From Sphyrna mokarran (taxonomy: Eukaryota): 64,000 bases of DNA. The position numbers and the translations under genes were made by a program. Positions 606-55,140 of the stretch are shown in pieces. Numbering within the stretch: the first letter of the stretch is position 1; each line of letters starts with the position of its first letter. The stretch is from contig JAGIQG010000006.1 of assembly GCA_024679065.1 (NCBI GenBank), forward strand, positions 72,726,001 to 72,790,000. Reading direction: 5' to 3'. Below the pieces are notes generated by a model. That model was not told where the DNA came from. It searched no databases and was given only the letters and a program-made list of their open reading frames with translations.

Positions 606-668
606 TATAGAACGATAAATGGAAACAAACTAGGAAGAAACAAAATAATCATGCACAATGTAGATGTA

Positions 669-757
669 CAGTAAGTAGTCTCGCAACTCCAGGTTAAAAC
701 CCAGCAGGTTTATTTGGTAGCATGAGTTTTCAGAGCATTGCCCCTTCATCAGATGGG
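669..757 (-). mobile_element. 89-bp Penelope-tail mini-insert with 10-bp TSD
   Basis: TGTAGATGTA at 659-668 and 758-767; similar to 3958-4050; interrupts the Gypsy pol frame. Confidence 0.85.
721..755 (-). ncRNA. Minimal type I hammerhead ribozyme motif (core intact)
   Basis: Reverse complement CAU CUGAUGA A GGGGC AAU GCUCU GAAA ACUC AUG; stem I CAU/AUG; stem II includes GU pairs. Confidence 0.7.
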
Positions 758-3700
758 TGTAGATGTAAGAAGTGATGTTCCAATTAAGTAGCATCCTATA
801 GACTTAACTCACTAAAGTTCAAAAGGAGGCTGAAGCATGTTTTAAAATGATGTCATTGAAGTGAGTTGCAGCAAGTGATCTCATCCAGAGTGATGATAAC
901 TAAACCAGATGATACAAAACAATTGTATATTGACAATAGAAAAGGCAATGCAGTCATAAAGTCAGGTTCATGTTCTATTCCTCAATTGAAGAATATATTG
1001 AGAAGGTGGGACAAGCAAATTTCATTTCTAAACTTAACTTGCAAGAACGATATTGACAGATACCTTTATCTGAAAGAACAAAGGAGATTTCAGCTTTTGT
1101 GACACCAAATGGTCTGCACTAGTTTAAAGTCTTGCCGTTTGGAAAGAAGAATGCACCAGAATGTTCTGAAGATCAACCAATAAGATCATTTCCAGTCTGG
1201 CTAATTGTGCAGTGTATGTAGATGATATGGTGGTTTTCAGTCAGATGTGGAATGAGCATTTGGAGCAGTTAAAGAAATAGTTTGACTTCAGGAAGTGAGC
1301 CTCGTGTGGCTAAATGTGAATTTGCAAAAGCCCAAGTTCTTGGGCCATTCTTACCCCAAGGTCTTAAGACATGGATAGGTGGTCCCACTGATTGTGAAAA
1401 CAAAGGTTATCAGTGAGTTCCCAATATCAAAGATGAATAGGGAAGCACTGAGATCCCTGAGCATGAATGGCTTCTCCAGTGAGTTTGTGCCAAATTTGAG
1501 CAGTGTGTTTGTTCCACTGATAGAATTGCTGAAAATGTAGAGAAAGTTTCAGCGGATGTCTGAGCCTCAGAAGGCATTTGACAACCTGAAGAACTGTTAA
1601 CCACCCAACCAGAGTTCACAACACTGAATTGTACAAAAGTATTCAAGGTGGCCATTGATGTGAGTGTTAATGCTGAAGTGTTAGAAGATGATGATGAAAG
1701 GATAGAGAGACCATTTAGTTACGTTACTAGCAAACCAAATAGTTATTGACAAAAATGTTTGTTGAGAAGGAGACATTAATTTTGATGTTGCCAGCAATTT
1801 ATCAGAGACTATTATTTACTCTGACCATAATTCATTGATATTTCTGGAGGAATTTCAAGATAAGAATGCAAAACTGTTTAGTTGGAATTTATTACTACAA
1901 CCATTAGTTTAAAAATTATATATGTGGCAGAAAGGGAGAAGGTGATTACAAATGTTTCATCTTGACTTTGATGAAAGAAGACTAGAAACATCCAGCGTAG
2001 TAAGAGAAAGACTGAATTGAAATATACTACTGTTATATTTGCATGCTTAGATGTAATAAGATCTATGTAAATGTTTTGTAGAGTACTAATAGTGTGGAAA
2101 ATAGAGGTTTTGAAAAATGAAGCCATCATTTCATATTGGTTCATTTTTAAGGGGGATGGTGTAATATTGCTATTTTGATATATTTCATATTTAAGGTAGG
2201 GTTTCTTCAACAGGCAGTGTTTTACAAGAGTTGATTTTTCTGGTAAATGAGCAGCAGATGCTGAGGTTAATGGCTGATTTTAGCAAGGAATGTGTTACTT
2301 TATAGAATTGATGGACCTTTTATTTAGGTTCTCCTGGGATTTTAGACTAGATAAGCAGGATCATGTCTGTTTTTGATTAGTTTGGTTGTTGGGGCAGACT
2401 CGTGCTTAATGGCAGGAGCTAATCATGCTGGAAAGCCAGTTTCATATTCATTTTAAAAGAAAAACATTGGTACCTGTGCTGCCAGAAGAAAGCAGTGTGT
2501 CTCTCTGTGTGTGTCTTTCTCTTTCTCTCTCTCTCTATCTTTCTCCAGAGGTATTCTGAAAGCTCCAAGACTGTTAATCTAAGTGTGTTTTGCTGACTAA
2601 ATATAAAAAAGAATTGAAGTCTATAAGGGAAATTTTTGCTTCTTTGGAAGTCAGTGATAGATTAACAGTTAAGAATTCTATCTTGTCATGTTTTAAGTAT
2701 TGTTCAGTTGTTGAAGAGTAAGCTAATTTGTTATAGATAAAATGTGTTGTTAAATAAAATTTGTTTTGATAAAAGCCTCCTTCTTTATTAGTGGAATTGC
2801 GCCTGGATTGGAGTGTCTTATCCTCGCTATGCCAATCTAACAAATTGTTGGGGTCTAGTCTGACATCATTATATACCTCTGGGTTTCTGATTTGGTAGTC
2901 TTATAACTATAAGCCCTTAATACTTTCCTTGACCACCCCCCACTCCTCCACATCCCCCGAAGCCATGGATTGTTCTTTCTCACGCTTTTTTGATTTTTAA
3001 TGGAATGTATTTCAATGAACATCTTTCAACCTTTTTCAAAATGTTTTCACTGTTTATTTACCACCATAACTACAAATTAAACTGCTATGAACAAAGAATT
3101 AGAAGCGATCCCAGAGAGGGAACAACAATAGACTGCAAAGACCGAGGGCAATTCCGCTGAGAACCAGAGAAGATGCCAGAGAAACCGCGAAAACTCTACC
3201 AAAGCAGTAAACAATCCAGCAGGGATGAGGGGGAGTGGCAACAGAGAGAGAGAGAGAGAGAAAAACAAGAGTCACCAGAGGAAGGGCAATAAGAAGATAA
3301 ACAATTGCAAGAACAGTTGATTGTCCTGCAAGATCAAGTGCGAAAGGAATGTATAACCATTAAACAATATGAAGAAATGATGACTATCTTAAATGGCAGA
3401 ATTAAAGCAATAAAAGATACTCAAGGTGATCCGACTAAATTACAAGAAGGCTCAAGATGAAACAATTGAGCTTTGCAAAGAGAAGAAAAACCTGTTAACA
3501 GGCCTTCAAACACTCAACAAAATTTCCTTAGGTCAAGGCTTATTCCTCTGGAAGATTACAAAGTAAAGTGAAATGACTTTAACATTACTTTGAACAAACT
3601 GATGAACCAGTTGACAGAGCAAAATACCAAAAACAGTACAATTACCATTGCTGCAATCGTGAAGGATTGAGATGTGGAAGAACTGTCACTTGTCAAGACT

Positions 3701-4015
3701 TATCTCAATTCATTATGTTAGAGATTGAGACGGGGAGTGAGGATAGCAAGTAAAAAATGTATTGTAATTCTCCACTGGAAGGCAGGAAAGTTTTCTTTAA
3801 AGAAGAAAGGGGGATGTTGTTACATTACCTGCATGCCATTGTAATGTAAAGATGCTCAGCAGAACAAGAATTATCATAGGACTGGTGAATAGCATTGCCT
3901 ATGGTATGATGAATAGAGTCATGATATGGAGATGCTGGTGTTGGACTGGGGTAAACACAGTAAGAAGTCTGACAACATCAGGTTTAAGTCCAACCGATTT
4001 ATTTGATAATAAACT

Positions 4016-4049
4016 CACAAGCTTTTGGGATTTCTCCCTTCGTCAGGTG
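4016..4049 (-). ncRNA. Minimal hammerhead motif in PLE 3' pseudo-LTR (G12 mutated)
   Basis: Reverse complement CAC CUGACGA A GGGA GAAA UCCC AAAA GCUU GUG. Confidence 0.7.
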
Positions 4050-6216
4050 AATGGAGAGTTCTGGCCTCAGACAGAGCATATAACAGCACGCACAGTTTAC
4101 AGATTACTGATTAGAATGTGAGTCTTTACAACTAACCTGCTATTCAAGTCTTAAAGATGCCGACAATGTGAGTGGAAAGAGCATTAAGCTCAGGTTAAAG
4201 AGATGTGTATTGTCTCCAGACAGTACAGTCAGTGAGGTTTTGCAAACCCAGGCAAGTCATGGGGTTACAGATAGTGTGACATGAACCCAGGATCCCTGTT
4301 GAGACCGTCCTCCTGTGTGGAACTTGGTATCAGTCTCTGCTCAGTGACTCTAGCTGTTGTGTGTCGTGAAGGCCGCCTTGGAGAATGCTTACCCAAAGGT
4401 CAGAGGCCGAATGCCTGTGACTGCTGAAGTGTCTGCCAACAGGAAGGGAACAGTCTTGCCTGGTGATTGTCGAACGACGTTCATTCATCTGTTGTTGTAA
4501 CATCTGCACGGTGTCCCCAATATGCCATGCTTTGGGACATCCTTTCCTGTAGACAATGTTGGCAGAGTTGCAAGAGTATGTACTGTGTACCTGGTGGATG
4601 GTATTCTCACGTGTGATGATGTCATCCATGTCGATGATCCGGCATGCCTGGCAGAGATTGCTGTGGCAGGGCTGTGTGGTGTCTGGTCACTGTTCTCCTG
4701 AAGGCTGGATAGTTTGCTGCGAACAGTGGTTTCTTTGAGACTGTGTGGTCATCTGAAGGCAAGAAGCGGAGGTGTGGGGATGGCCCTGGTGAGATGTTCA
4801 TCTTCATCAATGATATGTGGAAGACTCCGGAGACGATGTCGTAGCTTCTCTGCTCAAAGGATGTACTGGATGACGAAGAGTACTCTGTCCACTGTGTCCA
4901 GTGTTTGTCTTCTGAGGAGGTCGGTGCAGTTTTTCGCTGTGGCGCATCGGAACTGTCGATCGATGAATTGAGCGCCATATCCTGTTCTTATGAGGGCATC
5001 TTTCAGCATCTGGAGGTGTCTGTCACGATCTTCTTCATCTGAGCAGATGCTGCGTATATGGAGGGCTTGTCTGTAGGGAATGGCTTCTTTAATGTGTTTA
5101 GGATGGAAGCTGGAGAAGTGGAGCATTGTGAAGTTTGCAGTACAGTGAGGTGCTGACGTGACTGTCCTTGGTAGAGATGTGTGTGTCCAAGAATGCAACC
5201 GATTCTGGAGAATAGTTCGTGGTGAGTCTGATGGTGGGGTGGAACTTGTTGATATTTGTTGTTTCGTGATTGTTCACCATGAGTCCAAAGGAAGAAGATG
5301 TCATCGATGTATCTAGTGTGTAGCATCGATTGAAGGTCCTGTGCAGTGAAGAAGTCTTGTTTGAACTTGTGCATGAAGATGTTGGCATATTAAGGTGCAA
5401 ATTTGGTCCGCATGGCTACTCAGTATGTCTGGATGAAAAACTGGTTGTTGAAGTTGAAAATATTGTGGTCCAGGATGAAACAGATGAGTTGTAAAATTGC
5501 ATCTGGAAACCGGCAGTTGTCAGCATTGAGTACTGAGGCCGTTGCAGCAATGCCATCGTTGTGGGTGATGTTGGTGTAGAGTGCCGAGACATCCATTGTG
5601 ACAAGGAGTGCCCTGGTTCACCTGCTCCATCTGTGCTGAGTTTCCGTAAGAAATCCGTAGTGTTGCAACAAAAGCTGGGGTTCTTTGTACAATGGGTTTC
5701 AGGTTGCCCTCAACATAGCCGGAGAGGTTCTCGCACAGGGTCCCATTGCCCAATATGAAGGGATGGCCGAGTGTGTTTGCCTTGTGTGTTTTTGGGAGGC
5801 AGTTGAGATCTCCAATACAGGGTGTACGTGGAACGAGAGCACGGAGGTGCTCTGAAGGTCTGGATCGAAGGTCTTGATCCAAGGCAGCCTTCACAACACA
5901 TGACAGTACAGAATCGTTGAGCAGAGACTGATAGCCAAGTTCCGCACGCATGAGGATGGTCTCAACAGGGATCTTGGGTTCATGTTGCACTCTCTGTAAC
6001 CCCCACGACTTGCCTGGGTTTACAAAACGTCACTTACTGTACTGTCTGGAGACAATACACATTTCTTTAACCTATGCTTAATGCTCTTTCCACTCACACT
6101 GTCGGCATCTTTTAAAACTTGAATAGCAGGTTAGTTGTAAAGACTCACATTCTAATCAGTAATCTGTAAGCTGTGTGTGCTGTTATATGCTCTGTCTGAG
6201 GCCAGAACACTCCATT

Positions 6217-6246
6217 CACCTGACGAAGGGAGAAACCCCAAAGCTT
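6217..6246 (+). ncRNA. Minimal hammerhead motif in inverted pseudo-LTR, truncated at the predicted cleavage site
   Basis: CAC CUGACGA A GGG AGAAA CCC CAAA GCUU followed immediately by the TSD. Confidence 0.65.
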
Positions 6247-6590
6247 ATGATAAACAGAGTAACATTGTAATAGACTTAGTGAATAGTCAAGAATCAGAAC
6301 TCTAAGTAAGCATCCTACCAGCATGAAAAAAATACCATGCATGACCATACATTGGATCTGTGACTAATTAAAAAATTAATGATTCATGTTTAAACAGGCA
6401 ACTCTCAAGATCTCCCCACTGAAACATTTAAAAAACCCGTAGTATAACATACAGCAAACAGCACATTGTGATAGGTTCCACAACATGTTGGTCTAGGAAA
6501 CACCCTCAAAACTCATCTTTTGGGCTATGTTTGCCAATTTGAATTGTCCAATCTACATGAAGATTCAAATCCTCTACAATTATTACCTTA

Positions 6591-6903
6591 TTTAAAGTTT
6601 AAGGTTTATTTATTTCTTAGTGTCACAAGTAGGCTTGTGTATATACACTGCAATGAAATTATTGTGAAAATCTCCTAATCACCACATTCCATCACCTGTT
6701 CAGGTACACTGAGGAAGGATTTAGCGTGGCCAATGCAACTAACCAGCACATCTTTTAGTTGGTGCGGGGAAACCAGAGCATCTGGTGGAAGCCCACTCAA
6801 ACGGGGAGAACGTGCACACTCTGCACAGACAGTGGCCCAAACCGGGAATTGAACCCAGGTCCCTGGCACTGTAAGACAGCAGTTCTAACCACTGTACCAC
6901 TGG
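6591..6903 (-). mobile_element. tRNA-derived SINE (HE1/V-SINE-like)
   Basis: Reverse complement has A box GTGGTACAGTGG and B box GGTTCAATTCC; tail of tttaaag units; homologous to 16362-16636 and 34198-34501. Confidence 0.85.
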
Positions 6904-7333
6904 GTTATTGCTGGGTTAATATCCTGGAATTCTTTAACCAATACCATTCTAAGAACAAAATATCACAAAGATATTATGATTCGACCAGAAATCAAACCAA
7001 ATTTATGTGGCCTTTTCAGTACTGCATATACCCAGTTTCAATTTAATTTTTGTAGTGACATGTGTGCATTATTTTCTTCTGATACTAGCTTTCTGTGCAG
7101 ACAATTAAGGCCAGTTCTGTATTAATTCAGAGTATTTATTTTTTATTTCCATACATAGCTTTTAGCCAATTTGATTGAATCAATTTATGTTTATTGAGAA
7201 ATAATAGAATGCATTTTTCAAATGTAATATGACCAGGTTATAGTATAACTTATTATTGTAAGTATAGATTTTGTTTTATTTTTCCTCTGTTTTGGAATGC
7301 TGTTCATTTAAAAATTTTGTGTTCCTTTTTCAG

Positions 7334-7486
7334 GATCCCACCTCACCACGAGGTAGCCCACCCCACTCACCAAGGGAAAATGGCTTAGATAAATCTCGCC
7401 TGTTAAAAAAGGATGCACCTATAAGCCCAGCTTCCATTGCTTCCTCCAGTAGTACCCCTTCCTCAAAGTCCAAAGAAATGGGTCTA
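7334..7486 (+). CDS. TLE4: TLE4 coding exon (CcN/SP region, [20 protein letters not shown]...SKEMGL); first exon visible in the window
   Basis: ttttcag|GAT acceptor and CTA|gtaagc donor; 153 nt, phase 0-0; translation matches the Groucho/TLE CcN-SP region. Confidence 0.95.
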
Positions 7487-8062
7487 GTAAGCATCATGTC
7501 TACATTTCTATATGAACTCTTCAATTGGAAATTAATGTTAACAGAGGCTCATTCTAATTCAATAAAATTATCATCTTTCACTCCACTCCATTGCTGCTCT
7601 GATGTCTGCCGCATGGAGCTCCTTGTTTCTCCTGTATGACATGGCATCAAATAGTGAAACTTATCATAAGCTTCCTGCAGAAATGAGCTTCAAGAGCAAA
7701 TCAATTAGATATCTCTGGCTTAAAAACTGCAAATTTGAACCAGAGAGGGGAAAAAAACTGCTGGATTGCAAGGTGACTCAGTAACCTTGAAAATAAAAAA
7801 AAATTCTTTGGATGTAAAGCTTCCATGAGAAAATCACAAACAATTTAAAAGCCAGCAATTGGAACAGGCACTGAATTATATACCTGCAGCCAATGTATTA
7901 GTTTCCCAACTCCATGTCCCCCGGATCATTTTCCTGGAAGTGGGCTGGGAAGGGCAGGGCTACCCAAATGCAATCCACAAGTAACCAGTTTAACAAATTA
8001 AAGTTCAATTAAGGCCTATTCTCAGAGACTGATTGGGATCTTCACGATGTGCATATACCAAC

Positions 8063-8173
8063 GTTGGACTGGGGTAAAGCAGAAAGAAATCTTACAATAC
8101 CAGCTTAAAGTACAATAAGTTCATTTGTAGCAAACACCCCAAGCTTTTGGAACACATTCTTCCTTCATCAGGC
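8063..8173 (-). mobile_element. Penelope-tail mini-insert with decayed hammerhead motif
   Basis: gttggactggggtaaa...aagcttttggaacacattcttccttcatcagg; reverse complement CUGAUGA A GGAA..UUCC AAAA GCUU. Confidence 0.75.
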
Positions 8174-8965
8174 AAACTCCCAGCCACCTGATCTTTCTGG
8201 GATCTTCAAGGCAGCCTTCAGGTCTCCAGACACTATGGGGAACAAAGCAGCTGCCGACAGATAGCTTCCCACAGCTCTTTAACCAGGTCTAGAGGCCTTC
8301 CTCACCTTCTAAGTTTCAACCACAATTGCCTTGTGAGAGGATTCCCTGCCCCACCACAACTCTCCCCTCCCCAATGAGGGCCTGGCAGCTAATGATGCCA
8401 TTTTTAAATTTCAAATTCAGAAAGTTTGGAAAACGGGCATCTCCCTTTTGGAAAGCTGTTTGCTTCTGAATGGTATCCTGGATGCTGCTTTTAAGCAGTT
8501 TGTACACGCATTGGCCCTTGAGCTTCAGAGCCCATTTTTCCTCGTCAATTGGACAGTGAATCCACTCTTTGTCCATTAATTGACCATTTTGAGGAAAATC
8601 ACAGAGAAGTGATTACAATGCAGGCTCCTGACCTCCATTTAAGCCTGATCATGGGGTCCTGACAGCCAAAGGCAAAAAGCTGGCCCAGGACTCTGCATCT
8701 TACCTATTAATAGCATGGCATGTAAAATCTGTGATTTGCTTTGATGGAAAAACACATGAAATAAGGTTTTTTTTAAAAAAAGAACTATTGATTTTTGGCA
8801 AAAATAATTTGGCATTTTCTCAATTATAGCTATTGGTGTTATTATTAACATTTTAGATTGGTTGTTGGTCTATGTCATTCACAATGTTAATATATAATAA
8901 ATGATTCTTTGCAGTACAACTTTGGAGTTGCCGTATTGACAAAGCAGTTTTCTGTTTGTGTGTAG

Positions 8966-9977: not shown

Positions 9978-11120
9978 CATAAGAGTTAGGAGCAAGAGTA
10001 GGTTGTCTGGCCCCTCGAGTCAGGTCAGTCATGCAATAAAATCAGAACAGACCTTTTTGTGGACTCAGCTCTACTTACCTGGGCTCTTGCCAAAACTCTT
10101 ACTTCCTCTGTTGTTCAAAAATCTATCTTTGCCTTCAAACCATTCAATGAGGTAGCCTCAACTGCTTCACTGGGCAAGAAATTCCAAGGATTTACAACCC
10201 TTTGTTGGAGAAATTCCTCCTCAAACCGATCCTAGATCTGCCCCCTCTTATTTTGAGGCTGTGCCCCTAGTTCCAGTTTCACCTGCCAGTGGAAACAATC
10301 TCCCAGCTTCTATCTTATCTATTCCCTTCATAATCTTATATGTTTCTATAAGATTCCCGCTCATTCTTCTAAATTCCAGTGAGGATAGCTCCAGTCTGCT
10401 CAGTCTGTCCTCATAAGCCAACCCTCTCAACTCTGGAATCAGCCTAGTGAATCTCTCTGCACCCCCTCCAGTGCCAATATATTCTTTCTCAAGTAAGAAG
10501 ATCAAAACCATACACAGTATTCCAGCTGCAACATAATTTCCCTGTTTTAAACTCTATCCCTCTAGCAATGAAATTCTATTTGTCTTCTTAATTACCTGCT
10601 GCACCTGAAAACCAACTTCTTGTGATTCATGCACAAGGACTTCCAGACCCCTCTGCACAGCTGCATGCTGCAATTTTTAACCATTTAAATAATAGCCCAT
10701 TTTGCTGCTATTCCTACCGGAATGGATGACCTTACATTTACCAACATTGAACTCCATCTGCCAGACCTTTGTCCACTCAGTTAGACTATCTATATCCCTT
10801 TGCATACTTTCATCATCCTCTGCATGCTTTGCTGTACCACTCATCTTCGTGTAATCTACAAACTCTGATACACCACACTTGGTCCCCAACTCCAAATCAT
10901 TTATGTAAATTGTAAACAATTGCAGTCCGGACACTGATTCTTAAGGTACACCTCTAGTCACTGATCACCAACCAGAAAAACGTTCATTTACCCCTACTTT
11001 TTGCTTTCTGTTAGTTAACCAATCCTCTGACCATGCTAAAACATTTCCCTTAATTTCATGCATCTTTATCTTATGCAGCATCCTTTTGTGTGACATCTTG
11101 TTGAATGCTTTCTGGAATTT
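9978..11120 (-). mobile_element. CR1-type LINE 3' portion (RT, decayed)
   Basis: ORF fragments FQKAFNKMSH, LFTIYINDL..SEFVDYTK and ERFTRLIPELRGLAYEDRLSRL. Confidence 0.9.
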
Positions 11121-12905: not shown

Positions 12906-13202
<297 letters not shown>

Positions 13203-15968: not shown

Positions 15969-16217
<249 letters not shown>

Positions 16218-16361: not shown

Positions 16362-16636
16362 TTTAAAGTTTCTTGATTAGTCACAAGTAAGGCTTACATT
16401 TACACTGTAGTGAAGTTACTGTGACATTCCCCTAGTGGCCACACTCTGGCACCTGCTCCAGTCTTTGTACCTAACCAGCATGTTTTTCAGACAATGGGAG
16501 GAAACAGGAGCTCCCAGAGGAAACCCATGCAGACACAGGGAGAATGTGCAAGCTCCACACAGACAGTGCCCCAAGCTGGGAATCGAACATGGATCCCTGG
16601 CACTGTTAGGCAACAGTGCTAACTGCTATGCCACCT
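16362..16636 (-). mobile_element. tRNA-derived SINE (HE1/V-SINE-like)
   Basis: Homologous to 6591-6903; A and B boxes on the minus strand. Confidence 0.85.
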
Positions 16637-17899: not shown

Positions 17900-20280
17900 A
17901 GGCAAATCCTCAGTGGAAGATCCACTGCTGAAGACTGAATTATCTGTAGGTAACTGTGACCCAGTGCCTTAAGAGACTATGATTCTTTAGGCAAATGGTC
18001 ATCAAGATATGTGCCCTCATCACTGAAGACCTTGCACCATTATACCCTGTAGATCACTGTGCCTTGTCCATCACTGTCAAAGTTACTGTGCACTTGAATT
18101 TCTTTGCTTCTGGCTTCTTTCAAGGATCAGCAGCAGATATTGGTGCCATTTGTACACCACTGCATTTTACTGGTCACAGATATCCTCTTTCATTTAACGA
18201 CAGGCACAATCTTGCAGAGACAGGGGTATTAATATATCAGAAATTGTGTGCTTTCACAATTACACTATTAGCTAATTGCAATGTTAAAGACAGGCAATGG
18301 ATCATTGGCTCAGCCACCAGAAGAATATAAATGGACAGAGCCATAACAATTGGGGTTCAGTGAACCATAAGAAATTTATAACTCTGCTGAATTGTATGGT
18401 ATAAACTTGCTGAAATTAAAAGACAAACTGTTGTATTATTTCTCCACCATCTTAATAGGGGGTATTGAGTTTTGCCTCCATTGCCGAATGTCCTCTGAAA
18501 GAAGACATTATAATGCGCCCATATGGCCAACTGGGCACCCAATGACTGGTCAGTGAAATTCATCGCCAGGAAGGGCGACCATTCTATCATTATCCAAGTG
18601 CTCCATGACCACAGCAAGAGTTTCCTCCATGGCCTGGTTTTTGCTGGCTCTGTGCCAATAACCCCCAGTTAATAAGTCAGTGCAGCACCTGTCCACAATT
18701 TCAGTGATGGCCCTGCAGCAATTTAATATTGGGAGCACTGTTAATTGCTTTAAGGTGAGATGCCACTTTTGCAGGAAGAAGTCTTGCATTAGAGATCTAT
18801 TGACCAGTTAGATGTCTGGTATCTGTATAAATCCAGCAGTGGCAACTGAGATTACAAGTAGACCAACTATGCCAAGGAATGCAAGGTAACTCTGGCATCA
18901 GAAATCTCAGTGAAGGGAGTGGAAGGCTGAGTTCAAGAAGTTGGGAGCAGGGTTAATGGGAAAAATCCCTTGTTGCGGGCCAGGAACCAACAAAGGCAAT
19001 CCTCCCTATAGATTCCCAACTCCAACCACCCCTTACTTGACACCAGCCTGCACAATTAAATCTGCTGGGCCTGGCCTGATCCAGCTCTTGTTATAGGTAA
19101 AATACCAAAGAGGAAGGATTAAAGCCCTGAAGTGATATTAATTGATCATTTAATGACCTCCACAGGCTCAATGTGGAGTCTGCCTGACGCTTTACCCACA
19201 CCCAGTAAAATTTCAGACAGGTCGAAGTGGTTGGATAGGCATTGGNNNNNNNNNNNNNNNNNNNNNNNNNNNNNNNNNNNNNNNNNNNNNNNNNNNNNNN
19301 NNNNNNNNNNNNNNNNNNNNNNNNNNNNNNNNNNNNNNNNNNNNNNNNNNNNNNNNNNNNNNNNNNNNNNNNNNNNNNNNNNNNNNNNNNNNNNNNNNNN
19401 NNNNNNNNNNNNNNNNNNNNNNNNNNNNNNNNNNNNNNNNNNNNNNNNNNNNNNNNNNNNNNNNNNNNNNNNNNNNNNNNNNNNNNNNNNNNNNNNNNNN
19501 NNNNNNNNNNNNNNNNNNNNNNNNNNNNNNNNNNNNNNNNNNNNNNNNNNNNNNNNNNNNNNNNNNNNNNNNNNNNNNNNNNNNNNNNNNNNNNNNNNNN
19601 NNNNNNNNNNNNNNNNNNNNNNNNNNNNNNNNNNNNNNNNNNNNNNNNNNNNNNNNNNNNNNNNNNNNNNNNNNNNNNNNNNNNNNNNNNNNNNNNNNNN
19701 NNNNNNNNNNNNNNNNNNNNNNNNNNNNNNNNNNNNNNNNNNNNNNNNNNNNNNNNNNNNNNNNNNNNNNNNNNNNNNNNNNNNNNNNNNNNNNNCGCCG
19801 CTTCCAATCCTACCTTGAGCAGAAAATTCAGTCCCATCTATGTGTTTGTTTTCTTGGCAGTTGCCATGAATCTTTCATCCTCTGCCAGCCCAGGCTGCCT
19901 CTGATCTTCATCCCAATCCCAACATAGATAGATAGATCCTCAGAGATAAGGAGTAATCCTTGAAAAGAGAGCTTCTCACACCTCTGTGGTGATCCATATA
20001 GAGGCACAAAAATGATATGACCAAAGCCACTTGCTCTTTTTGACAACTAATAGCATTCTGAAGATGCAGTTATGGTGCCTGGACCAGATGGATGCTTTCC
20101 ACTAATACCGTTGTTGAAAGGTCCCAGTTATTGTGGTGGTCTGCTGTGTGCTCCATAACATGATCCTTCAGAGAGGTATGGACATTGAGGACGATGAGGC
20201 CTGGAAGATGACACCTCAGTGGGGAACGAGAAAGATGTGAAAGTGAAGACAGAGGAAAATGACACTGAATGGAGCAGTGC
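17900..20280 (+). mobile_element. Decayed PIF/Harbinger transposase, split into several blocks and spanning an assembly gap; the element may extend about 16730-20670
   Basis: ALSITVKVTVHLNFFASGFFQGSAADIG (about 18060-18150), FIARKGDHSIIIQVLHDH (about 18560-18610) and LKMQLWCLD..VVVCCVLHNM (about 20060-20165) match HARBI1-family motifs. Confidence 0.8.
19246..19795. other. Assembly gap
   Basis: Run of N. Confidence 1.
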
Positions 20281-20773: not shown

Positions 20774-21001
<228 letters not shown>

Positions 21002-34197: not shown

Positions 34198-34501
34198 TGT
34201 GTGGCACAGTGGTCATTACTGCTTCCTCCCAACACCAGGAACCCAGGTTCAATTCCAGCCTCGGGTCACTGTCTCTGTGGTGCTTGTGCATTCTTCCCAT
34301 GTCTTGTATGGCTTTCCTCTGAGTGCTCCAGTTTCCTTCCAGAGGCCAAAGATGTGCCATTTGCCATGCTAAACTGTTCCTTAATGTCAAGGAGAATGGC
34401 AGATAAATACCTGGAGTTATGAGGATAGGCATGGGTGGGATTGTTGTTGGTGCAGGCTTAACAGGCTGAATAGCCTCCTGCACTGTAAGGATTCTAGGAT
34501 T
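34198..34501 (+). mobile_element. tRNA-derived SINE (HE1/V-SINE-like) with CR1-like tail
   Basis: A box GTGGCACAGTGG and B box GGTTCAATTCC; tail ggctgaatagcctcctgcactgtaaggattctagg. Confidence 0.85.
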
Positions 34502-37554: not shown

Positions 37555-39490
37555 AAATCAAGGTCCAAATTCATATCCATTGAATCTGCTGCTCAACATG
37601 ACTGAACTGCCTTGCTCGAAGGTAAGCTAAGATATGCTCGCTGGACTTGTGTAAGAGCGATGAGTTGTCAAGTGATATACATGACGGGCTCATTCTCTCA
37701 GCTCACTGCTTCCACGTATCTATGGGCTGCCCAAGACATGCGCAAATGATGCCTCTTTTTGCACACATGGATTGGCCAAATGGTTAGACGAATTGTTAGA
37801 ACAATTCTCAAGCAAGTTTTCCATATGTTTTCCAGTGAAGGATTCCTTCATATTTGTGAAGACATACTGGGCTTGTGTATAAGTAGCTGTGCTGTGTCCC
37901 ATGAGCTCATTTGACATTACTAGCCCTATTTATCAACATTCCACTTAAGGAAGTGACAGATGTTTGCACTGTCACACTATATCATGTTGATCTAGATCCA
38001 TCGCCATTGCATGAACCAATATTTGCTGAACTTATGAACTGAGAAACTTGCAAAGTTGAATTCAGTTCTAACAACACCATGTATACCCAAATAATTGGTG
38101 TTGCCATGGGATCCACCTTAAGCCCAGCTCTTGCAAACGTCTCCGTTGGAGTTCATGAGTAACTATCTTCCATGAACTTAGATGTAAATTTCTGATATGT
38201 GAATAATATATTTGCTTTATTTAAACCTGCAGCTGCATGTAATAATTTCCTTACATGTCTTACTGCGCTCAAATTTAGCTTTGAAATGGAGCAGTCAAAT
38301 TAACTTCACTTCCGTGATGTACTCGTTGAGAAATATGCCAGAGGTTTCTTTACCACAGTCTGTCGGAAGCCTATCTTTACTGATCAGTTTATGCATTGGG
38401 ATTCTTACAGTTTCATTAGTTGTAAGATTGATCTTATCGGCAATGTTTAAATAGGGCCCAACCATTTGCTCAGCAGGCAAGCTTGATGCTGAAATAAGGC
38501 ACATGAATGGCATCTGCAGGAAAATGGCTACCTCAATCAGACACTATATGCAAATTCCTGTATGGGCCTAAGGCTGTCACTTTCGGCCAAGAAAAAATAC
38601 AGTCTACCTCACGTAACTGTGGAAAGGTAAAGTATCTCAAAAACATGAGGAATAGATGAAGCTAGCTGTTTGATGCTGCTACTATGCAATAGCAACATGA
38701 GTGATATTCACCATTAACAGAATATACTGTCCAACCCAAAAGGCTTGCCTATCTCATACATGAGTAATGTGGCATATAAATTTCAGTGCCAGTGATGCTT
38801 GGCTGTACATCTCAAAGACTGGCAGGCAGATTGCATCAAATAGCATGTCCCTTCCAGTGTTCACAAGGGACAAGGTGCATAACATATGCAATTAGCCCAT
38901 GCTTGCAAAGTACAAAATACAGTATCCAACATTAGATGTGATTCCATGAGTGGACATTTGCTAAATAATCCTTAAGTGTGCTAAAATTTACACTGAAATT
39001 CAGAATCACCAGTTGGGCTCACATTGTAGCTCATTTATGTGTATTGACAGCTAATTATATCAATACACAGGATCCTGTCTCTTTATAGACAGAGAAAAAA
39101 CACGTATGCACATTAAGCCTGTTTCAACTAAACAAAATAAATGACAACCATAAGACATAAAAGCAGAATTAGGCCACTCAGCCCATTGAGTCTGCTCTGC
39201 CATTCAGTCATGGCTGATATTTTTCTTATCCCCATAGATGAAGACCAATTGCTGGTTCATTCCTTCGGGCAATGCCTTGACTAACCAGAGTCAAGCTGCC
39301 TGGTTTAAATTTCAAACAATGCTTGGCATTCTCCATTGTGTTACTCTACCAATCAGAGCACTTGCTAATCAATCAGCACTCTCTTCTCATTCATTCAGAA
39401 CATATTTGGTGATTCCCCTTGCATTCTATTCTTCTAAAAGTCTTAAATGGTGCAAAACAAAAAGATTTGACAAAAAATGTCTCATTCACT
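37555..39490 (+). mobile_element. Second, older Penelope-like family (RT + GIY-YIG + 3' UTR), decayed
   Basis: YGLPKT, GLAKWLDELLE, VKDSF, SFDITS, GVAMGSTLSPALANV, TVCRKPIFT and SNVAYKFQCQ; short CR1 3' insert at about 39150-39235. Confidence 0.85.
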
Positions 39491-39611
39491 AATACTCAAA
39501 TTCTGCACTGACTATAAAATATTAAGCTGCATATACAAACCATGGGAGGGCAGTCAAGAAAGATTCACATTTTGTTTGCTGAGAATGCATGCCTTGCTAC
39601 TGCTTATGATT

Positions 39612-39803
39612 GTAAGAAGTCTCACAACATCAGGTTAAAGTCCAATTGGCTTATTTGTTAGCAAAATCCACTAGCTTTTAAGTAAGTGGGATTAATGCTC
39701 TGAAAACTAGTGGAATTTGCTACCAAATAAACTGTTGAATTTTAACCTGATGTTGTGAGACTTACTGTGTTTACCCCAGTCCAACGCTGGCATCTCTACA
39801 TCA
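39612..39803. mobile_element. Palindromic Penelope-tail mini-element with 12-bp TSD
   Basis: TGCTTATGATTG at 39601-39612 and 39804-39815; arms 39612-39679 and about 39702-39766 are reverse complements. Confidence 0.85.
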
Positions 39804-41759
39804 TGCTTATGATTGACCCAGCAATAGCAAGACATTTTGAACAGATTGCAATTCAGGTAAATAAACTTCCCATTCATTTCTGTGTAAACCAGAGAAGTTA
39901 GGCTCAACTTTCCAGGGCATCACAGGTCAAAAAATGGACTGACTTTCCAAGAAATCACCTTATGTGTGTGAGAACTCAAATAAACAGATATTATCTGAAT
40001 TATACTTCTCATTATTACTAAACAGCCTCTGTATTGCTGAAAATGATATTTTATCTTCAATTTCAGTGACTTTGATATGTAGGTTACTATGAACTTCCAT
40101 TAACCAGTACACCATCTGCTCTCTCTCTCTATTTTGATGTCCTTATTGCAATCAAAACATGTTTTGTTTTATTCTTCCTCTACGATGCTTCCAGTTATAG
40201 GGAAATAAAACACATCAATTCATGCCCCAGAGTCTCAAGTTGAATGATTGAGCAGCCAGCCTGCTTAAAGGTAAAAGGTACAATTCTAGGCAATTAGATG
40301 CTTTACAATACTTCAATATTAACCAGTGAAGACATCTATAATAAATTGAACAATGTATTTAAGTTAACACTGCTTCTCCACCTGATGACTAAGATTGATA
40401 TGCTGATTGAATTTTATATCGTTCTTTTATTTCATTCTCTCCCCCACCCAATCTCTCGGTATTTGTTGATCACCAGTAACTTCTAATTGGCCATATTTTA
40501 GGGAGCCAGTAAAAATTAAAGCTAATATAGGCCTAATGCAAATTGATGCACTCTCTGCCGTCGCTGTGGGCACTGAGCTGAATTTATCTTCTGGGCAACT
40601 GCCCATTCATGCCACCTGGTAGAAAGGTCAGAGGACTATGGGCCTCATTGAAATAGGTGTCCTGAAGTTCACCAGATTCAAGCTACTTCAATGTCTGGCA
40701 ATCCCAGTAGCAATGAAATGTCAGGTGGGGCAATGATTGTTGGGGAAGAGAAGTTGGATAGCAACAGTTCAAATAAAAGGACAATGTTTTCTGACCCCTT
40801 TAAAACTTAGATTTCATGAAACGGACCAGGACACAGCACACAGTTCTGCCTTAAATGGTAATCAGGGTTTCATGTGCATCATGGAACCTGAATTTGCATA
40901 ACAAGCCGGCCTTTTGTGGCTGCCTTGTGATTGGCTCCTCAAAAAGAAATGGCAGTGTGAATATAGCGTTTGCATCAATGGTGTGGCAATCTTACTGCTC
41001 TCGTTAGAAAAATGTTATTGCTCTATTATCATAATTTTTTGGAAATTAAAATATAAAATTTAATTTAGGACTTTGTATAATAAAATATTTGAAAGAAAAA
41101 TTTGATAGTGGGTTTTTGGTAGTGAAAGACCCCTAAAGAATGTATGGCACAATAATTTCCTCCTGACAATTTTCCAAACATTGGTGACTTCTTCATTTGC
41201 TTGGAATTGAGAAAATAAACTTAGCTTTTCTCCGTGCACAGCAGCTGCATAGCATGATGAGACATCCCATAAATTCTGAAAATTGGTTCACGTTCCAATT
41301 CAAGATGAGTCTTTAATCGTGTATAACAAGACTGGAATATAGAGCAACTTGTTTGTGAGTAACAGAAAGGGAAAATATGCCCAGCTGTCTGGAGTTCATG
41401 ATCCTTATTGTGGCTGAATGTCATTTAAAATGAATGTTTTGCATATAATTGTCATAATCAGAGGAATTGTCAAAAGGTGAATGGCCCTTGACAGTATATT
41501 TTAAGAATTTGGGAGCTTCTATGCCCAATAATGATCCAACTATTGTACAACAGACTTTTAATAGTGAAAAGGCCATTCATATTTTGGATAGATTGCTTTT
41601 TAACTGTTTTCAATGTATCCATGTCATATATTCCATTTGTTATATCTGACCTGAAATTATCAATGTCTGTCAATGCATATGCAATTATTTTGAATTTCCT
41701 CTGAGAAAGACCAGAGGAAGGTCTCTGTTTGGATGTTTTATATTCAAGTGTTTCAAAGT

Positions 41760-43222
41760 GTCCACCTGATATTTATAGTGGCCATCTTATGTTCATCTTA
41801 AAGATCAAGTGCTCCAAAGGCACTTGGATGAAGATGAAAGAGGTGGCCAGGAACAATTTCTGGTGGCCAGGCATTGACTTCCAGATCAAGCAGAAGGAAC
41901 CTGCTTGCAGATCTTCTTCTGTGGTGTGGAAAACACTGCTATTGTTACTCCTCCGCCCATGGGAATGGCTTGAAGCTCCTTGGCAAAAAATCCATGTAGA
42001 CTTCACAGATCCAGTGGAGAGAAAGATGCTATTGGTGAAGATTGACATCCACTTGAAATAGCCAGAAGTGGTAATTATGAAGTTGGAAGTCCACAGAGGT
42101 GACTATAGAGTAACTCTGAGTTATTTGCTTGATTTGGAACCCATGATCCAATTGGGCTACAGTTTGTGGACTATCTCAAAACCAGGGAGTCCAGAAGATG
42201 AAGTCAGTGCCACACCATCCTGCAACAAATGGCCAGGCCAAAAGGTTTGGCCAGATCTTAAAACAAGCCCTTATGGTTTCCAAAGGGGAGGAGTCTCTTG
42301 GAAGGCAAGTGAATCGATTCTTAAGCACATATAACACACTTCATATGATGATCCAAGATTCCCCAGCATCATTGAGGTTTGGCTGCAGATTGAGGACCAT
42401 CTTTGATCTGATGCAGATGGAGGAGACACAAGAAGCAGTAACAAACAACCAAGAAGGGCAGATGGCCTGTAGAGGGAAAGGCAAAAGTTTGGGAAGGGAT
42501 AAACCATGTCTGCGAGGAACTATACGATGGGAGAAAAATGGATTCCTGCAATAGATGTGGCCTCAACAGGGTCAATTTCATACATTGTTCAGACCAGGAC
42601 GAATGGGTCTGGAGGAGATCCAGCTGGTGGTTGCTCCACATCAAAGCAGGGAAGTCCTCTTTGATATGGGAATGTTTCTAGTAGAGCCTGAATAATTGAC
42701 TGAGTCTTGTGTTCCTGACACTAAGGGAGTTCTGACCAGAGAGAAAGCATCAACAGAAGCTACTGATGACAATAACCAAGCAAGAGAGGAAGTTTCAGAG
42801 CTTTCAAAAATGCAGGGAAGAACACTTAAGAAGACCTCAAATGAGACATTCAACGAGCAACCAGAGTTCTCCAGATAGACGATTATGTCAATGTAGACTT
42901 TGTAATGGACATTAATATTGCCATTCACACTTGATGTTCGTTATGTTTTGTATATTTATTGAACAATTCAATTATGTGTTAAAAATGTATGCATGTCACG
43001 TAGGGGGTTTAGAAGCAAGAGGAAAGAAGTATTATGTATGTTGGGGCATGCCCCTTTTAAGGGAATGGGTCAGGTGATCTGTGACTCAAACCTACCTTGG
43101 ATGGAGCTTGCAGGGACAGTCTTGTGCTGATTGTGCTTGGGGAATAGTTATAATAAATTATTTCATTAGTTAACTATTGCTGACCTTTATTAGTCTTCAA
43201 TATCATATCTCAAACATCATAA
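41760..43222 (+). mobile_element. Decayed Gypsy element: integrase, PPT and short 3' LTR (about 43039-43222)
   Basis: KMKEVARNNFWWPGID, PWEWLEAPWQKIHVDF and PHHPATNGQAKRF; purine tract then tattatgtatg..gccccttttaaggg..aataaa. Confidence 0.85.
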
Positions 43223-47590: not shown

Positions 47591-48094
47591 TGCTTCTCTG
47601 ACTGAGAAGGTAGTTTTTTTTTTCAGAAAGTAAGTGCAAGCACAAGTGCTGTAAAATTCTAATATTGAATTTCATATCAGAAGTTACAGTTAAAGGAATG
47701 CTCCAATCTGTGACAGACATCTTTCAATCTGGTAAGTGCAGTATTGTACATTTGGATCTGTGAAACTCCAGACATACAATATTATAGTGGAGTATCCACT
47801 AATGGTGTTGAAACGGAAGTGAGAGATGGGCTGCATAGTGATGTGAAAAGATGACAAGTACAACAAGGCTATTAGGATATAAATAGCTTCTGGGCTATAC
47901 TTCCTTTATACTTGTTATATATGATGTATGCATCTGTTTAGCTCCTTTGGAAAGAAAAAAGAGATCAAATTTATCTCACCTTCACAAACTCAGGATACTC
48001 CAAAGAGTTAATAAGTATTATTGAGGTGTATTTGCTGTCATAATGCAAGAAATATGGCCACTAATGTACAACACAACAAGATGTAATTTCAAAA

Positions 48095-48410
48095 CATTAG
48101 TCTTTAACACTACAGTTGGGATGCTGTCAGGAATCTTTGATATCTGCAATGTACTGAGCCATTTTTTGATGTCACTGACTCTGATGTTGGGTACCTCTTG
48201 AGGAGACTGAGGTGAATCACCCACTTGGCACTTCTGGCTGAAGTTGGTTACAAATACATCAACTTTATCTTTTCCACTGACGTGCCAAGCTCTCCCATTG
48301 TTGAGCATAGGAATATTCATGGACTGTCCTTCTCTTGTTTGTTCTTCAATTGTCTACTGCTATTTATGACAGGAAGAGGAAGGACTGTGGAGTTTTAACC
48401 TGATCTATTG
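48095..48410 (-). mobile_element. LINE (CR1/L2 group) internal fragment
   Basis: NIPMLNNG..KDKVDVFVTNFSQKCQV..DIKKWLSTL..PDSIPTVVLKT. Confidence 0.65.
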
Positions 48411-50529: not shown

Positions 50530-50697
50530 TGTGGGATTTTCTGCCCACCAACCCCTACCCTCCAGCATGTTTTGTGACAGCAACGGCTAACCCCACTATT
50601 GGGATCTTCTTATCCTATTGGTAAACCCGTAGCGGGGTTCACTATCAGCGGGATTGGAAGATCCCACTGGTAGGAACAGGTGGAAGATTCCAGTCAA
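50530..50697. mobile_element. MITE-like element
   Basis: gggattttct...ggaagattcc termini; internal gggatcttc/gaagatccc inverted pair. Confidence 0.55.
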
Positions 50698-53600
50698 TAG
50701 ACATACTGAGAAATAAACAATGCAACCATGTTTTCTTTTCCTGGGTATGGTATTATGATCAAAGCTTCTAGAAGAAATGTATTTCTGACAAAAAAAAGAC
50801 TTGTTTTATCCTTCTGAATTTTAAGTTTTAATTTCTTAATCTCAAAATAATCTTAGCTAGCTTTTTCATGAGACACAAAGTTAGATCCAGTGTTTCAATA
50901 AATAATTGAACACACAGTATCAGCTAAAATTGTACCCTGAATCATAAATCCAAAAGCATCCTGGCAACATTTAATTAAATCATTCTGCATTTTTAACTTC
51001 ATCACAAATCTAAAAATTAACCTTAAGTAAGAGAAACCAACGAAGTTAGTTAGGGATTATACATAATCCTAATCCACATATCTATGCATACATATACAAC
51101 AAAAGTTTCATTTACTACTGACCTTTAAGGTGAAGAAATTGTTTTGATTCCTACAATCCAATAGTCCCATTATTTTTAATCATTCAGTCCAAAGAGTCAT
51201 CCTTTCAACATATCCATTAATTTGCTTTGATTATATATTTTTTCTATATTTAGCCTGTTCTGCCCAGCTTCAGCAGCAGCTCCGCCTGCCACCCAGTTTA
51301 TACCGGATATTGAGAACATGTTCTCTCTGCCTCCCAATTTCTTGCAGCAATACATTTGTGAAACTAATCACATTCTTGTTTAAGCACTACTTGAGCCCAA
51401 TCTTCATAATGATTATTACAGAGTCCCTGAGGTAAAATTATGCTTATTAAATCAATTACAACCAGTAAAATCTCATATTGCACATTCGAGTACACCACTT
51501 GATATGTGACCTAAGCCATAAGTCCGTAATTGGGTTCCTCTGTAAAGTAGGCTCCAACACAGCTATTTCCTGGGAGTAGGTGTCTTATATTTGAGAAGCT
51601 TGTCAAACCTGAACAGATATTGCCTTGTTTCCTAGCTTAGGTGTCAAGCATCATGAGTATACATAGTCTGATTCTACACTTTGCTGCAACACTTATACTT
51701 GCCCTTATATCTCTTGTGAACAGAAGGTGAATGTAATTGGCACAGTGATTCAATAGTACCTGGCTTGATAATAATGGGAAGCATGCCTGTACATTATTTT
51801 TTCATCCTTCTTAATATCTAAAGTAATAGTGTTTATTGAAGCTTTCAATGGGAAGCGACCATTATGTTTAACCATAGTCCATCAATGTCAAGTTGTCTGA
51901 CCATTGTACTCTGCATTCCAGAAACAACAGTGAGCCATATTGTACAATCATAGTTTGGTTAATAACTTTTTCAACCTTGTTCAGACTTGGTCATTATTAT
52001 AATTTTCACAATGCAGTCCAAATATTGTACATATAACTAGCAGTTGTAGTGCTACAACCATGTTACCTTCAAAGTTATAAATCATGCAATTTTTAAAAAT
52101 TGATTAATGTGTTGCCGCCTGCTACTTTATAGTTTCATTTTCTCCATGGACTGTAGTGGGAGCTGTATAGTGGGACTTGCCTTAACCAGAAATTGAAATA
52201 CCTCTCCATTTGGGTGCAAAACACAGTATCCTTTTTCCTAAAGTCTGATGTCATGATGGTGTCCCAGACATTATGTTCAAAAAGTTAACACAATCTGCTG
52301 ATTTTACTGATTAAATTGCAGTAAGTGCTTTAATGGCAGAATGCAAGGTATTATGTTTGTATGGTACAGATGTATGTTATATATGCATAAATATATCAAT
52401 GTGGATATACATGAAATATTCACTCTTTAAACTGAAGACTATGTAATATTGATGGTAAAACCAAAGACAAATTTTTATCTTTATGTTGACAATATAGTTC
52501 GATTCCATTAATGTATGCAGGCCTGTCCAATGATGTGCATACTTCATGAGAGAATAATAAGCAAAGTACCAGTGCATCAATGGCTTGCACCCACAAGAGT
52601 TCATTATCAGAGTAATTATAGTGACTGCTTTGCTCATGAATCGCGTTTTCCCAAGCCCAAATTCATCACACCTAGGATTTTGGCAGCTTTTCAGCTCAAA
52701 TGATCCCAATTGGCACCATATCTATCATTTCTCTCTTAAGGCTCACTAGCAACCACTCTTCCTATCTATTGAGCATGCCCTATAGTTAAGTCATTTAATC
52801 ACACTGCATGCAATCCACCAATTTCATTGCCTGGGTCATAAAACACATGCAAAGTTCCTGTAACTTCTTTTATCTCTTGTTTCACTTGGCTGGCCTCTGT
52901 AAAATATCCAGTTTTTTGTATTGCCTCACCCTTGCACTATAGCAGTGGTAACTATCAATTGTAACTAAGCCAGTGATAGCAATACATCCTCTAATCATTA
53001 TTGTGGCACCTCACTGTGTTTCCCTTTTAATTAATTAATTACTTTATTTTCACGTCTTAGTGTGTAAAAGTGAGCCACAAATCTGAACAAATGCTCTGTT
53101 ACTTTAATTTAACCTTTTTCTCATCACTATAGCACACTTGTTTTACGATGACCAAAATTACTTTATCAGTTATATCTATAGATTTCTTTTGAAGAGATTT
53201 CTTAATAGTTCACACAGTTACTCAAATTATTGGAGAAACAGATGCATTCAGTTTCTTATACTTTTTCCTACCTAAATGAAACCCATCTCAGACATTTGCC
53301 AATCAGAGCTTTGCCACTTTAACCAGCTTATGTTCTTGGCTGCAGCTTATAGTTTACAACATTCTCCACTAATTTTAATAAGACAAAATGCACACAATAT
53401 CTTTAGACAGCAGTGTAACAGAGAAAGAAAATGATACTATCATGACTTTTTTTTCTCCTGGGTAGACACTTCTAGTTCTTGCCAGTTCTGATCTTCTCTG
53501 AAACTTAAGATCTTAAAGTGTGCTCCTTATAAAACACTCATTGATAATTGAATATGGCATGATGATCAATCCTCTTACAAAGGATGCATTTCTTCCAAAT

Positions 53601-53889
53601 AAATCAACAGATGCTACTTGTTTTAATCCTGCTGATCATTTATTTCATTCGTTATCTCAAAACTGCTTGAATAACTGCTTCACAAAACACTAATCTGACA
53701 TCCTGTGCTTCAATCAACACTTGAATTCTCAATGTCAGCTAAAATTGCACCCTGACTCATCAAACCAGGAAGAGTCCTGAGAATTAACAACTTTTAACTC
53801 ATTCTCTAGGTATTTACAATTGTAGTACAACTTGGCAAACTAAATACAAATAACAGCAACTAAAACCTTGATATGAAATTAAATTTCAT

Positions 53890-55140
53890 CCTAATGTTCA
53901 CAAAAAAAAAGGCAAATGAAATCTAGCTAATTATTACCCTATCAGTCTCCTCTCAATCATCAGCAACGTGATGGACGGATGGAAGGTATCAGCAACAATG
54001 CTATGAAGCAAAGTTGACATAGCAATGACCTCCCAGATGCTCAGTTTATGTTCCAACAGAGACGGTGAGTTCCAGCCTGCTCCAAACATGGACAAAAGGG
54101 TTGAATTCCAGAGGTGAGGTGGGAGTACCTGACCTTTTTAATTTGAGCATTTGACTGAGTGTGGTATCAAGAAGACTGAATAAAACTGGAGTCAATGGGA
54201 ATCAAAGGGTTATTGTCTACTGATTGGAGTCAAATCTAGCACAAAGGCTGCGATTGGTAGACGCCAATCATTACAACTGCAGGAGCTCCTCAGGGTAATG
54301 TCCTCAGCCCAAACCTTCACCGGGATGTAGGCATCACTGGCTAGGCCAGTATTTATTGCTCATCCATAATTACTTTTGAAGAGGTGGTGGTGAGTTCCCT
54401 TCTTGAACTGTTGCCATCCATGTGACCTAGAATCATCCACTGTGTATTAGGAAGGGGGTTCCATGGCCTTAACCCTGTGACAGTGAAGGAATGGAGCTGA
54501 GGGGTCTGCTGGAACTCAAACTGAGTGTTCATGAGCAGGTTATTTCTGAGAAAGTGCCGCTTGACAGCACTGTTGATGACACCTTCCATCACTTCACTAA
54601 TGATTGAGAGTAGACTGATGGGACAGTAATTAGTCACGTTAAATTTGTTTCTTGTGTACAGGACATACCTGGATAAAGTTCCATATTTCATGGTAGATGC
54701 CAGTAGAACAGCTTGGCTTGGGGTATTGTAAGTTCTGGAGCACAAATCTTCAATATTACTGCTGGAATATTGTTGGACTCAGCCTTTGCAGTAAACTTGT
54801 GCCTTCAGCTGTTCCACGATTTCACATGGAGCAAATCAAATTGGCTGTATCATGGACAGATGCATGTGTGCATCTGCTAAAGGCAGATTGATGAAGATGA
54901 GGTCAAGCACATGAAACATTATCAATTTCTTATTGGTTACCTCACCACCTGCCACAGATGCAGGTTAGCAGCTATGTCCTTTTGGACTTGGTAAGAAGTC
55001 TGACAACATCAGGTTTAAGTCCAACCGATTTATTTGATAGTAAACTCGCAAGCTTTCGAGGTTCTCCTCTTTGTCAGGTCAATGAGGTGTTCTGGACTTG
55101 GCCAGATCAGTCAGTAATAGTGCTATCCAATCACTCTTGA
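53890..55140. mobile_element. Two opposed LINE (CR1/L2 group) fragments: + 53890-54315 and - 54320-55140
   Basis: NYYPISLLSIIS on the plus strand and NYCPISLLSIISEVMEGVIN on the minus strand; PQGNVLSP motif. Confidence 0.75.
54991..55092 (-). mobile_element. Penelope-tail mini-insert (about 100 bp) with hammerhead motif and 9-bp TSD
   Basis: Near-identical to 3960-4050; TGGACTTGG at 54983-54991 and 55093-55101; reverse complement CUGACAA A GAGG AGAA CCUC GAAA GCUU. Confidence 0.85.

Follow-up and report, generated by a model that had tools for sequence, protein, structure and literature searches.

Minimal hammerhead ribozyme motifs in a probable Neptune-type Penelope-like element of the shark Sphyrna mokarran

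A 64,000-nucleotide stretch of the Sphyrna mokarran genome (contig JAGIQG010000006.1, positions 72,726,001 to 72,790,000, forward strand; hereafter the window) carries a dispersed set of minimal hammerhead ribozyme (min-HHR) motifs. These motifs very probably belong to the pseudo-long terminal repeats (pseudo-LTRs) of an endonuclease-bearing (EN+), Neptune-type Penelope-like element (PLE) of cartilaginous fish, whose genomic copies have decayed. The original prediction, made from the letters of the window, had listed five motifs, and all five are found at the coordinates and on the strands claimed for them:

721-755, minus strand: copy 1, with both catalytic boxes intact, a G10.1.U11.1 wobble and non-palindromic 15.1-16.1; H17 at 724.
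4016-4049, minus strand: copy 2, with a 5-bp stem I, a 4-bp stem II, the AGCU palindrome and A at position 12; H17 at 4019.
6217-6246, plus strand: copy 3, sister of copy 2, with a 1-nt deletion near G12 and an A.C mismatch in stem II.
8141-8173, minus strand: copy 4, with a 4-bp stem II, A at position 12 and a broken stem I.
55047-55080, minus strand: copy 5, with a 4-bp stem II, G12 intact, A at position 8 and a broken stem I.

A generic min-HHR descriptor—two boxes, a bulged base, a stem of at least 3 bp opening with G, UH, and at most one core mismatch—recovers exactly these five from the window. Applied to 100 dinucleotide shuffles, the same descriptor averaged 0.34 matches with a maximum of 2, and no shuffle reached 5; when zero mismatches are allowed, copy 1 alone is left. 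Judged by sequence, the published hallmarks of the min-HHR that give a clear result are present in most copies. The CUGANGA and GAAA..UH boxes are exact in one of the five and carry a single lesion in each of the other four, every box position being intact in at least one copy. The unpaired base between A9 and 10.1 is A in all five, and the closing pair 10.1-11.1 is G-C in four and G.U in one. Stem III had been described as reduced to the palindrome AAGCUU; the relevant palindrome is the 4-nt AGCU at 15.1-16.1, which is present in copies 2-5 and in one further arm near 39.67 kb, and is missing from copy 1 and from an arm near 39.70 kb.

Other searches added no copies of this kind. A covariance model built from the five copies found no additional full copy in the window (next match 12 bits, E 0.59), and nhmmer and covariance-model searches of the window returned nothing outside the seven arms described below. 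An Rfam scan to E 5 gave three weak matches, none of them a hammerhead, as is to be expected of a motif without helix III. Monomer folding of the five copies was not better than that of shuffles (z -1.59 to +0.16), and in homodimer cofolding the active dimer was the minimum-energy fold in 0/5 copies. For copy 5, cofolding gave a 14-bp near-palindromic duplex over the cut site (55042-55057, minus strand) as an alternative to the hammerhead fold.

The five motifs had been taken for five independent copies, which they are not: they represent four insertions, because a single 2.3-kb element supplies both copy 2, in its direct arm, and copy 3, in its inverted arm (the two arms differ by 27 substitutions over 362 aligned columns). 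A fifth insertion contributes two additional 5'-truncated copies, for seven arms in all. The arms end at the hammerhead cut site or at one of two positions downstream of it, termed sites A and B, and each insertion is flanked by a target-site duplication:

669-757, minus strand: insertion 1, an 89-bp 5'-truncated PLE end with hammerhead and tail to site A+2; exact 10-bp duplication, 659-668 / 758-767.
3920-6245, minus strand: insertion 2, a 5'-truncated PLE with an inverted pseudo-LTR arm; 15-bp duplication with 2 mismatches, 3905-3919 / 6246-6260, touching both element ends.
8045-8197, minus strand: insertion 3, a 153-bp 5'-truncated PLE end reaching site B; exact 11-bp duplication, 8034-8044 / 8198-8208.
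39613-39803, no single strand: insertion 4, two back-to-back inverted arms, each truncated inside the hammerhead; exact 12-bp duplication, 39601-39612 / 39804-39815.
39613-39682, minus strand: the 39.67-kb arm of insertion 4, ending at site A.
39686-39803, plus strand: the 39.70-kb arm of insertion 4, ending at site B.
54992-55092, minus strand: insertion 5, a 101-bp 5'-truncated PLE end reaching site A; exact 9-bp duplication, 54983-54991 / 55093-55101.

Duplications of 9-15 bp thus accompany all five insertions, and in a calibration on 300 random zone pairs an exact match of at least 10 nt occurred in 0/300. Insertion 1 shares 71-88% identity with the other arms, and insertion 5 belongs to the same subfamily as insertion 2 (90/100 aligned bases). 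The arms of insertion 4 were matched by nhmmer at E 1e-33 and 4e-20, using a model that includes these arms, and independently by BLAST to the tail of copy 2 at E 4e-18 and 5e-11. Two of the five insertions have inverted arms; in insertion 2 self-comparison gives an inverted repeat of ~370 bp at 90% identity. No microsatellite targeting was seen at the five insertion sites.

Insertion 2 retains the following parts:

4265-5885, minus strand: broken remnant of an open reading frame (ORF) for a reverse transcriptase (RT), linker and GIY-YIG endonuclease, with several frameshifts and stops; stop codon at 4265-4267.
5300-5311, minus strand: YIDD of the RT.
4642-4668, minus strand: CX5CxxC linker.
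4019-4382, minus strand: direct 3' pseudo-LTR arm, comprising the ORF end, the untranslated region and the hammerhead to its cut site.
5878-6246, plus strand: inverted pseudo-LTR arm, with its outer end at the hammerhead cut site (6245/6246).
3920-4018, minus strand: sequence past the cut site, with end sites A and B.

The link to PLEs, which had been inferred in the original prediction, is borne out here: copy 2 is located 219 nt past the stop of this ORF, within the repeated arm. The inner junction of the inverted arm overlaps the direct arm by ~7 bp, and neither a direct 5' pseudo-LTR nor a tandem occurs in the window. Among candidates for the RT piece adjoining copy 2, 204 of 255 match at E <= 1e-10, the best named matches coming from Mustelus, Scyliorhinus, Chiloscyllium and Heptranchias at 72-82% identity, followed by turtles at 40-46%. 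A GIY-YIG-like motif occurs in 40 of the 120 listed RT matches, and 39 of those 40 have a CX2-5CxxC linker. When 11 of the 120, shark and turtle RVT_1/GIY-YIG proteins, were used as tblastn queries, they were collinear over the entire 4265-5885. The Pfam RVT_1 match to the remnant has an E of 7.8e-5 and falls under the curated cut-off; the endonuclease part, which has a short internal deletion, gave no Pfam match of its own. A CX2-5CxxC linker between RT and endonuclease marks Neptune or Nematis, not Poseidon (PMC8557442), so the CX5CxxC linker points to Neptune or Nematis rather than Poseidon. On its sequence features, the host element of the motifs is an endonuclease-bearing PLE with a Neptune-type linker.

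Measured from the cut, site A is 58 nt downstream and site B 97 nt, the 39 nt between them forming an optional tail. Of the seven arm ends where reverse transcription would be expected to start, three are at site A (58-60 nt past the cut), three at site B (~97 nt) and one at the cut site itself; at the six ends examined, with the end of copy 2 as reference, the junctions have 1-3 letters in common with the target. The two sites match both the optional tail of 30-40 bp known from PLEs and the behavior of PAc, an element of Anolis carolinensis, in which the RT uses two internal start sites in vitro and both strands are cut and extended (PMC11167929). If copying starts just downstream of the hammerhead, then even truncated insertions of 90-150 bp keep the ribozyme, and the motif consequently looks like a dispersed family; cutting and extension of both strands would likewise account for the inverted arms. 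In two arms (3920-3923 and 39802-39805) an ATG falls at site B and could be the ORF start of a downstream tandem unit.

Stem II had been said to differ between copies yet always to pair. Over the four independent insertions this stands, with 16/16 cells paired and a compensatory Watson-Crick to Watson-Crick change at three of the four pairs; it does not stand for copy 3, whose GGG/CCC was rejected as independent covariation, its 3-bp stem II being the damaged stem of copy 2 (A.C mismatch). With copy 3 left out, the exact permutation p for the four rows is 0.021, and neutral star-tree simulations with 10-20% divergence per branch give at most 4.6e-4. Counting all five rows, 30/35 cells are paired (stem II 19/20, stem I 11/15) and slid controls pair 23-52%, pair counts being inflated by relatedness among the rows. 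The claim of selection on stem II across subfamilies therefore has modest support (p 0.021), weaker than five independent copies would give, and it is suggestive of selection in the masters of several subfamilies. Stem I, given as CAC/GUG in one copy and CAU/AUG in another, is less well kept: it is intact in copies 1 and 2 (2/5), with one compensatory change in copy 1, and is mismatched in copies 4 and 5. In copy 3 its 3' strand is not derived from the element, the bases after the cut site being duplicated target DNA.

No arm is fully intact (0/7), and the proposal that the core has suffered CpG decay fits what the sister arms of insertion 2 have kept and lost. Between them, 20 of 27 substitutions are transitions and seven are CG to TG/CA; 9 of 11 CG sites differ and the other two are kept in both. 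The two core steps 7-8 and 11.1-12 each hold one catalytic guanine, G8 and G12 respectively. Step 11.1-12 reads CG in copy 5, TG in copy 1 and the 39.70-kb arm, and CA in copies 2 and 4, and is ambiguous in copy 3 (deletion) and the 39.67-kb arm (junction); across arms, step 7-8 reads CG, CG, TG, TG and CA. Such lesions are severe in other hammerheads, for example G12A, which slows cleavage >500-fold (PMC2553840), and changes of G8, which abolish cleavage of the anole hammerhead (PMC11167929).

A life cycle can be proposed by analogy with other PLEs. In the master RNA, a tandem precursor would most likely be cut after H17 by a dimer formed via the AGCU palindrome. Such dimer cleavage would be weak unless helped, a protein of the element being the probable helper; weak dimer cleavage and protein help have precedents (PMC4209133, PMC11167929, PMC6765202). 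The GIY-YIG nuclease of the element would nick genomic DNA in a staggered fashion, and the RT would prime on the nicks and start copying at an internal site 58 or 97 nt past the cut, with priming on both strands leading to inverted-arm insertions. Selection would act on stem II in masters belonging to several subfamilies, and the genomic copies would be dead on arrival and would then decay, mainly at the two CpG steps with G8 and G12. Both this order of priming and this timing of the lesions we infer.

Several points weigh against such a reading. Over five rows, 20 of 500 shuffles reach or exceed the observed pairing score, a result not counted as significant under the null calibration of the pair counter; the independent stems number only four, and the structure was read from these very sequences. 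The class of the 15-bp duplication turned up in 4/300 random zone pairs, with zones smaller than those searched, and the duplications of 15 bp and 9 bp carry less weight when taken singly, the calibration covering exact matches of at least 10 nt. Only the linker motif places the element in Neptune, and Nematis has that linker too. The cleavage step is carried over entirely from other PLEs. Lastly, four of the seven arms lack G12 (the 39.67-kb arm and copies 2, 3 and 4), and two arms from independent insertions, copy 1 and the 39.70-kb arm, have U11.1 and A15.2 in common, A15.2 not being a CpG site. Because of this sharing, some core lesions may have been inherited from masters.

Missing G12 and shared U11.1 and A15.2 also favor an alternative that we consider unlikely: that the fold serves masters mainly as a signal, structural or for protein binding, or is carried along as a passenger, with lesions inherited and cleavage dispensable. 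The same view can draw on the anole study, in which mutating the hammerhead left in vitro insertion unaffected and RNA-seq gave no reads with an end at the cut site (PMC11167929), and on Naiad PLEs, which thrive without canonical hammerheads (PMC8557442). However, copies 2 and 5, at 90% identity, differ in their single lesion, G12 in one and G8 in the other, each at a CpG. Moreover, TG and CA decay products are both found at 11.1-12, and CG decay is frequent between the sister arms.

We give little credence to the idea that the short copies are a family of non-autonomous retrozymes or short interspersed elements (SINEs) with a circular-RNA cycle of their own, even though four of the five insertions are non-coding and only 89-191 bp long, and vertebrate non-LTR retrozymes derive from PLE pseudo-LTRs and occur in one chondrichthyan (bioRxiv 10.64898/2026.07.22.740005). 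The 5' ends of the copies all differ while their 3' ends are common, which is the signature of 5' truncation, and in insertion 2 the same sequence runs into the PLE ORF. A tandem retrozyme was rejected, there being no tandem units in the window, and none with a complete type I hammerhead. It is harder still to credit that the copies are active intronic ribozymes domesticated by the host within the TLE/Groucho gene. The copies do lie around plus-strand TLE exons, and copy 1 retains both catalytic boxes; yet copies 1, 2, 4 and 5 are antisense to the gene, both sense arms are truncated, and copy 1 has neither the palindrome nor a long stem III, in a set with no intact arm. Chance matches to a short degenerate pattern, for which the silence of Rfam and the unremarkable monomer folding might speak, are refuted by the shuffle count (5 against a mean of 0.34) and, further, by the common tails, the duplications and the adjoining PLE ORF, leaving that explanation with practically no probability.

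Within the decayed Neptune-type family that we prefer, one junction deserves comment of its own. No reads ended at the cut site in PAc (PMC11167929), whereas here one arm does: the inverted arm of insertion 2 stops at 6245/6246, which is H17 of copy 3. We put forward, tentatively and as something we doubt more than we believe, that this arm began at the 3' end of a ribozyme-cleaved RNA, used by the RT as a third start. Microhomology accounts for the end at the cut site as well. Priming on a cleaved RNA end would dictate this position, yet the four letters of target that follow can also pair with uncut RNA (three matches and one wobble), which has a probability of 1.7% by chance. Under internal priming by microhomology such pairing is to be expected, pairing this good occurring at only 2 of ~1,950 template positions, but an end no more than 1 nt from the cut site has a chance of 0.15-0.65%. 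Cleavage is favored ~3- to 11-fold for this junction, a single case (n=1) noticed after the fact and set against a low prior; the prior is low because of the missing anole reads.

Much of this is familiar from earlier work. Cervera and de la Pena (2014; PMC4209133) had already described the motif together with its palindrome and bulged base, as well as how it varies within genomes, and in each sequence feature that gives a clear result the present copies are PLE min-HHRs. They share with the published ones the type I form without helix III, the bulged base between 9 and 10.1, G10.1-C11.1, a palindromic 15.2-16.2, a stem I that is short where intact (copies 1 and 2), the pseudo-LTR location, and the occurrence mostly as solo truncated copies of variable subfamilies. 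Nearest in letters is the Chrysemys picta row of Fig. S3 in that paper, with the same 15.2-17 letters and the same A-rich motif downstream, a design almost identical to the present one. The copies here differ in having a stem II toward the lower end of the length range (4-5 bp) and in that every one is damaged.

The element as a whole resembles Neptune EN+ PLEs (PMC8557442; PMC3846280) in its RT, CX2-5CxxC linker and C-terminal GIY-YIG, and in its 5' truncation, inverted pseudo-LTR arms and tail of 30-40 bp. Reported duplications are 8-10 bp in those elements and 9-15 bp here; further differences are the lack of a direct 5' pseudo-LTR or tandem in the window, the lack of microsatellite targeting and a clade taken from the linker. 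PAc is alike in having two RT starts downstream of the hammerhead that define a tail, and in the cutting of both strands, but it is a Poseidon-clade element whose ORF begins within the hammerhead (PMC11167929), whereas no start codon or conserved frame through the hammerhead is evident in these copies. Non-LTR retrozymes likewise have a type I hammerhead of PLE pseudo-LTR origin and occur in vertebrates (bioRxiv 10.64898/2026.07.22.740005); they are tandem repeats with complete hammerheads, whereas the copies here are dispersed truncated insertions with duplications.

As to sharks, an expansion of PLEs in the introns of the whale shark has been reported (bioRxiv 10.1101/443036). A search of supplementary file 2 of PMC4209133 gave no entry for a shark or for Callorhinchus (file 1 lay outside the search), and the literature searched held no report of shark PLE hammerheads or of insertion ends at a cut site, although Repbase or unsearched supplements may list the family. 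In essence, the association is a known one, and this ordinary, well-preserved case widens it to a shark-type Neptune family.

GC content is 39% and the CpG observed/expected ratio 0.20 across the 64-kb window, which holds plus-strand exons of a TLE/Groucho gene. The stretch at about 7334-7483 (plus strand) we take to be one such exon, and insertion 3 is positioned between it and an exon that matches PDB 1gxr (TLE1) at E 4.8e-49:

12950-13180, plus strand: TLE/Groucho exon (limits approximate), matching TLE1 in PDB.

Assembly gaps occupy 19246-19795 and 55149-56024 (1,396 N in total, in four runs); the second begins 48 bp past the duplication of insertion 5, which is not cut by it. A second PLE-like RT remnant, far older, lies at 37700-38900 (plus strand) with 24-36% identity to the RT-piece matches. 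The CX2-5CxxC linker was not seen in any of its frames, nor was a hammerhead found alongside, and it is possibly of Poseidon type. The remnant of a retroelement, broken and probably Gypsy-like, lies at 41700-42550 (plus strand), where Pfam gives a weak match to an integrase zinc-binding domain (E 0.015). Remnants at 56400-58020, 59056-59327, 10246-10525 and 62-296, ~66% alike, resemble the RT ends of long interspersed elements, and we assume them to be probably of CR1/L2 type; Pfam gave nothing for the one piece tested. Finally, a SINE-like short dispersed repeat is present in three copies at 72-74% identity (6739-6900, 16471-16634 and 34201-34341).

The family nonetheless offers more than one further case. 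The two-start-site geometry, known in vitro for a Poseidon element, is now found in a second clade, and the presence of five insertions within 64 kb suggests that each genome holds junctions in the thousands. If the inverted arm of insertion 2 did begin at a cleaved RNA end, such junctions would be a genomic fossil record of PLE hammerhead cleavage in vivo, feeding transposition. Cut-site junctions could be counted genome-wide in shark assemblies and, should an end class at the cut site exist, it would settle the question of in vivo cleavage by PLE hammerheads.

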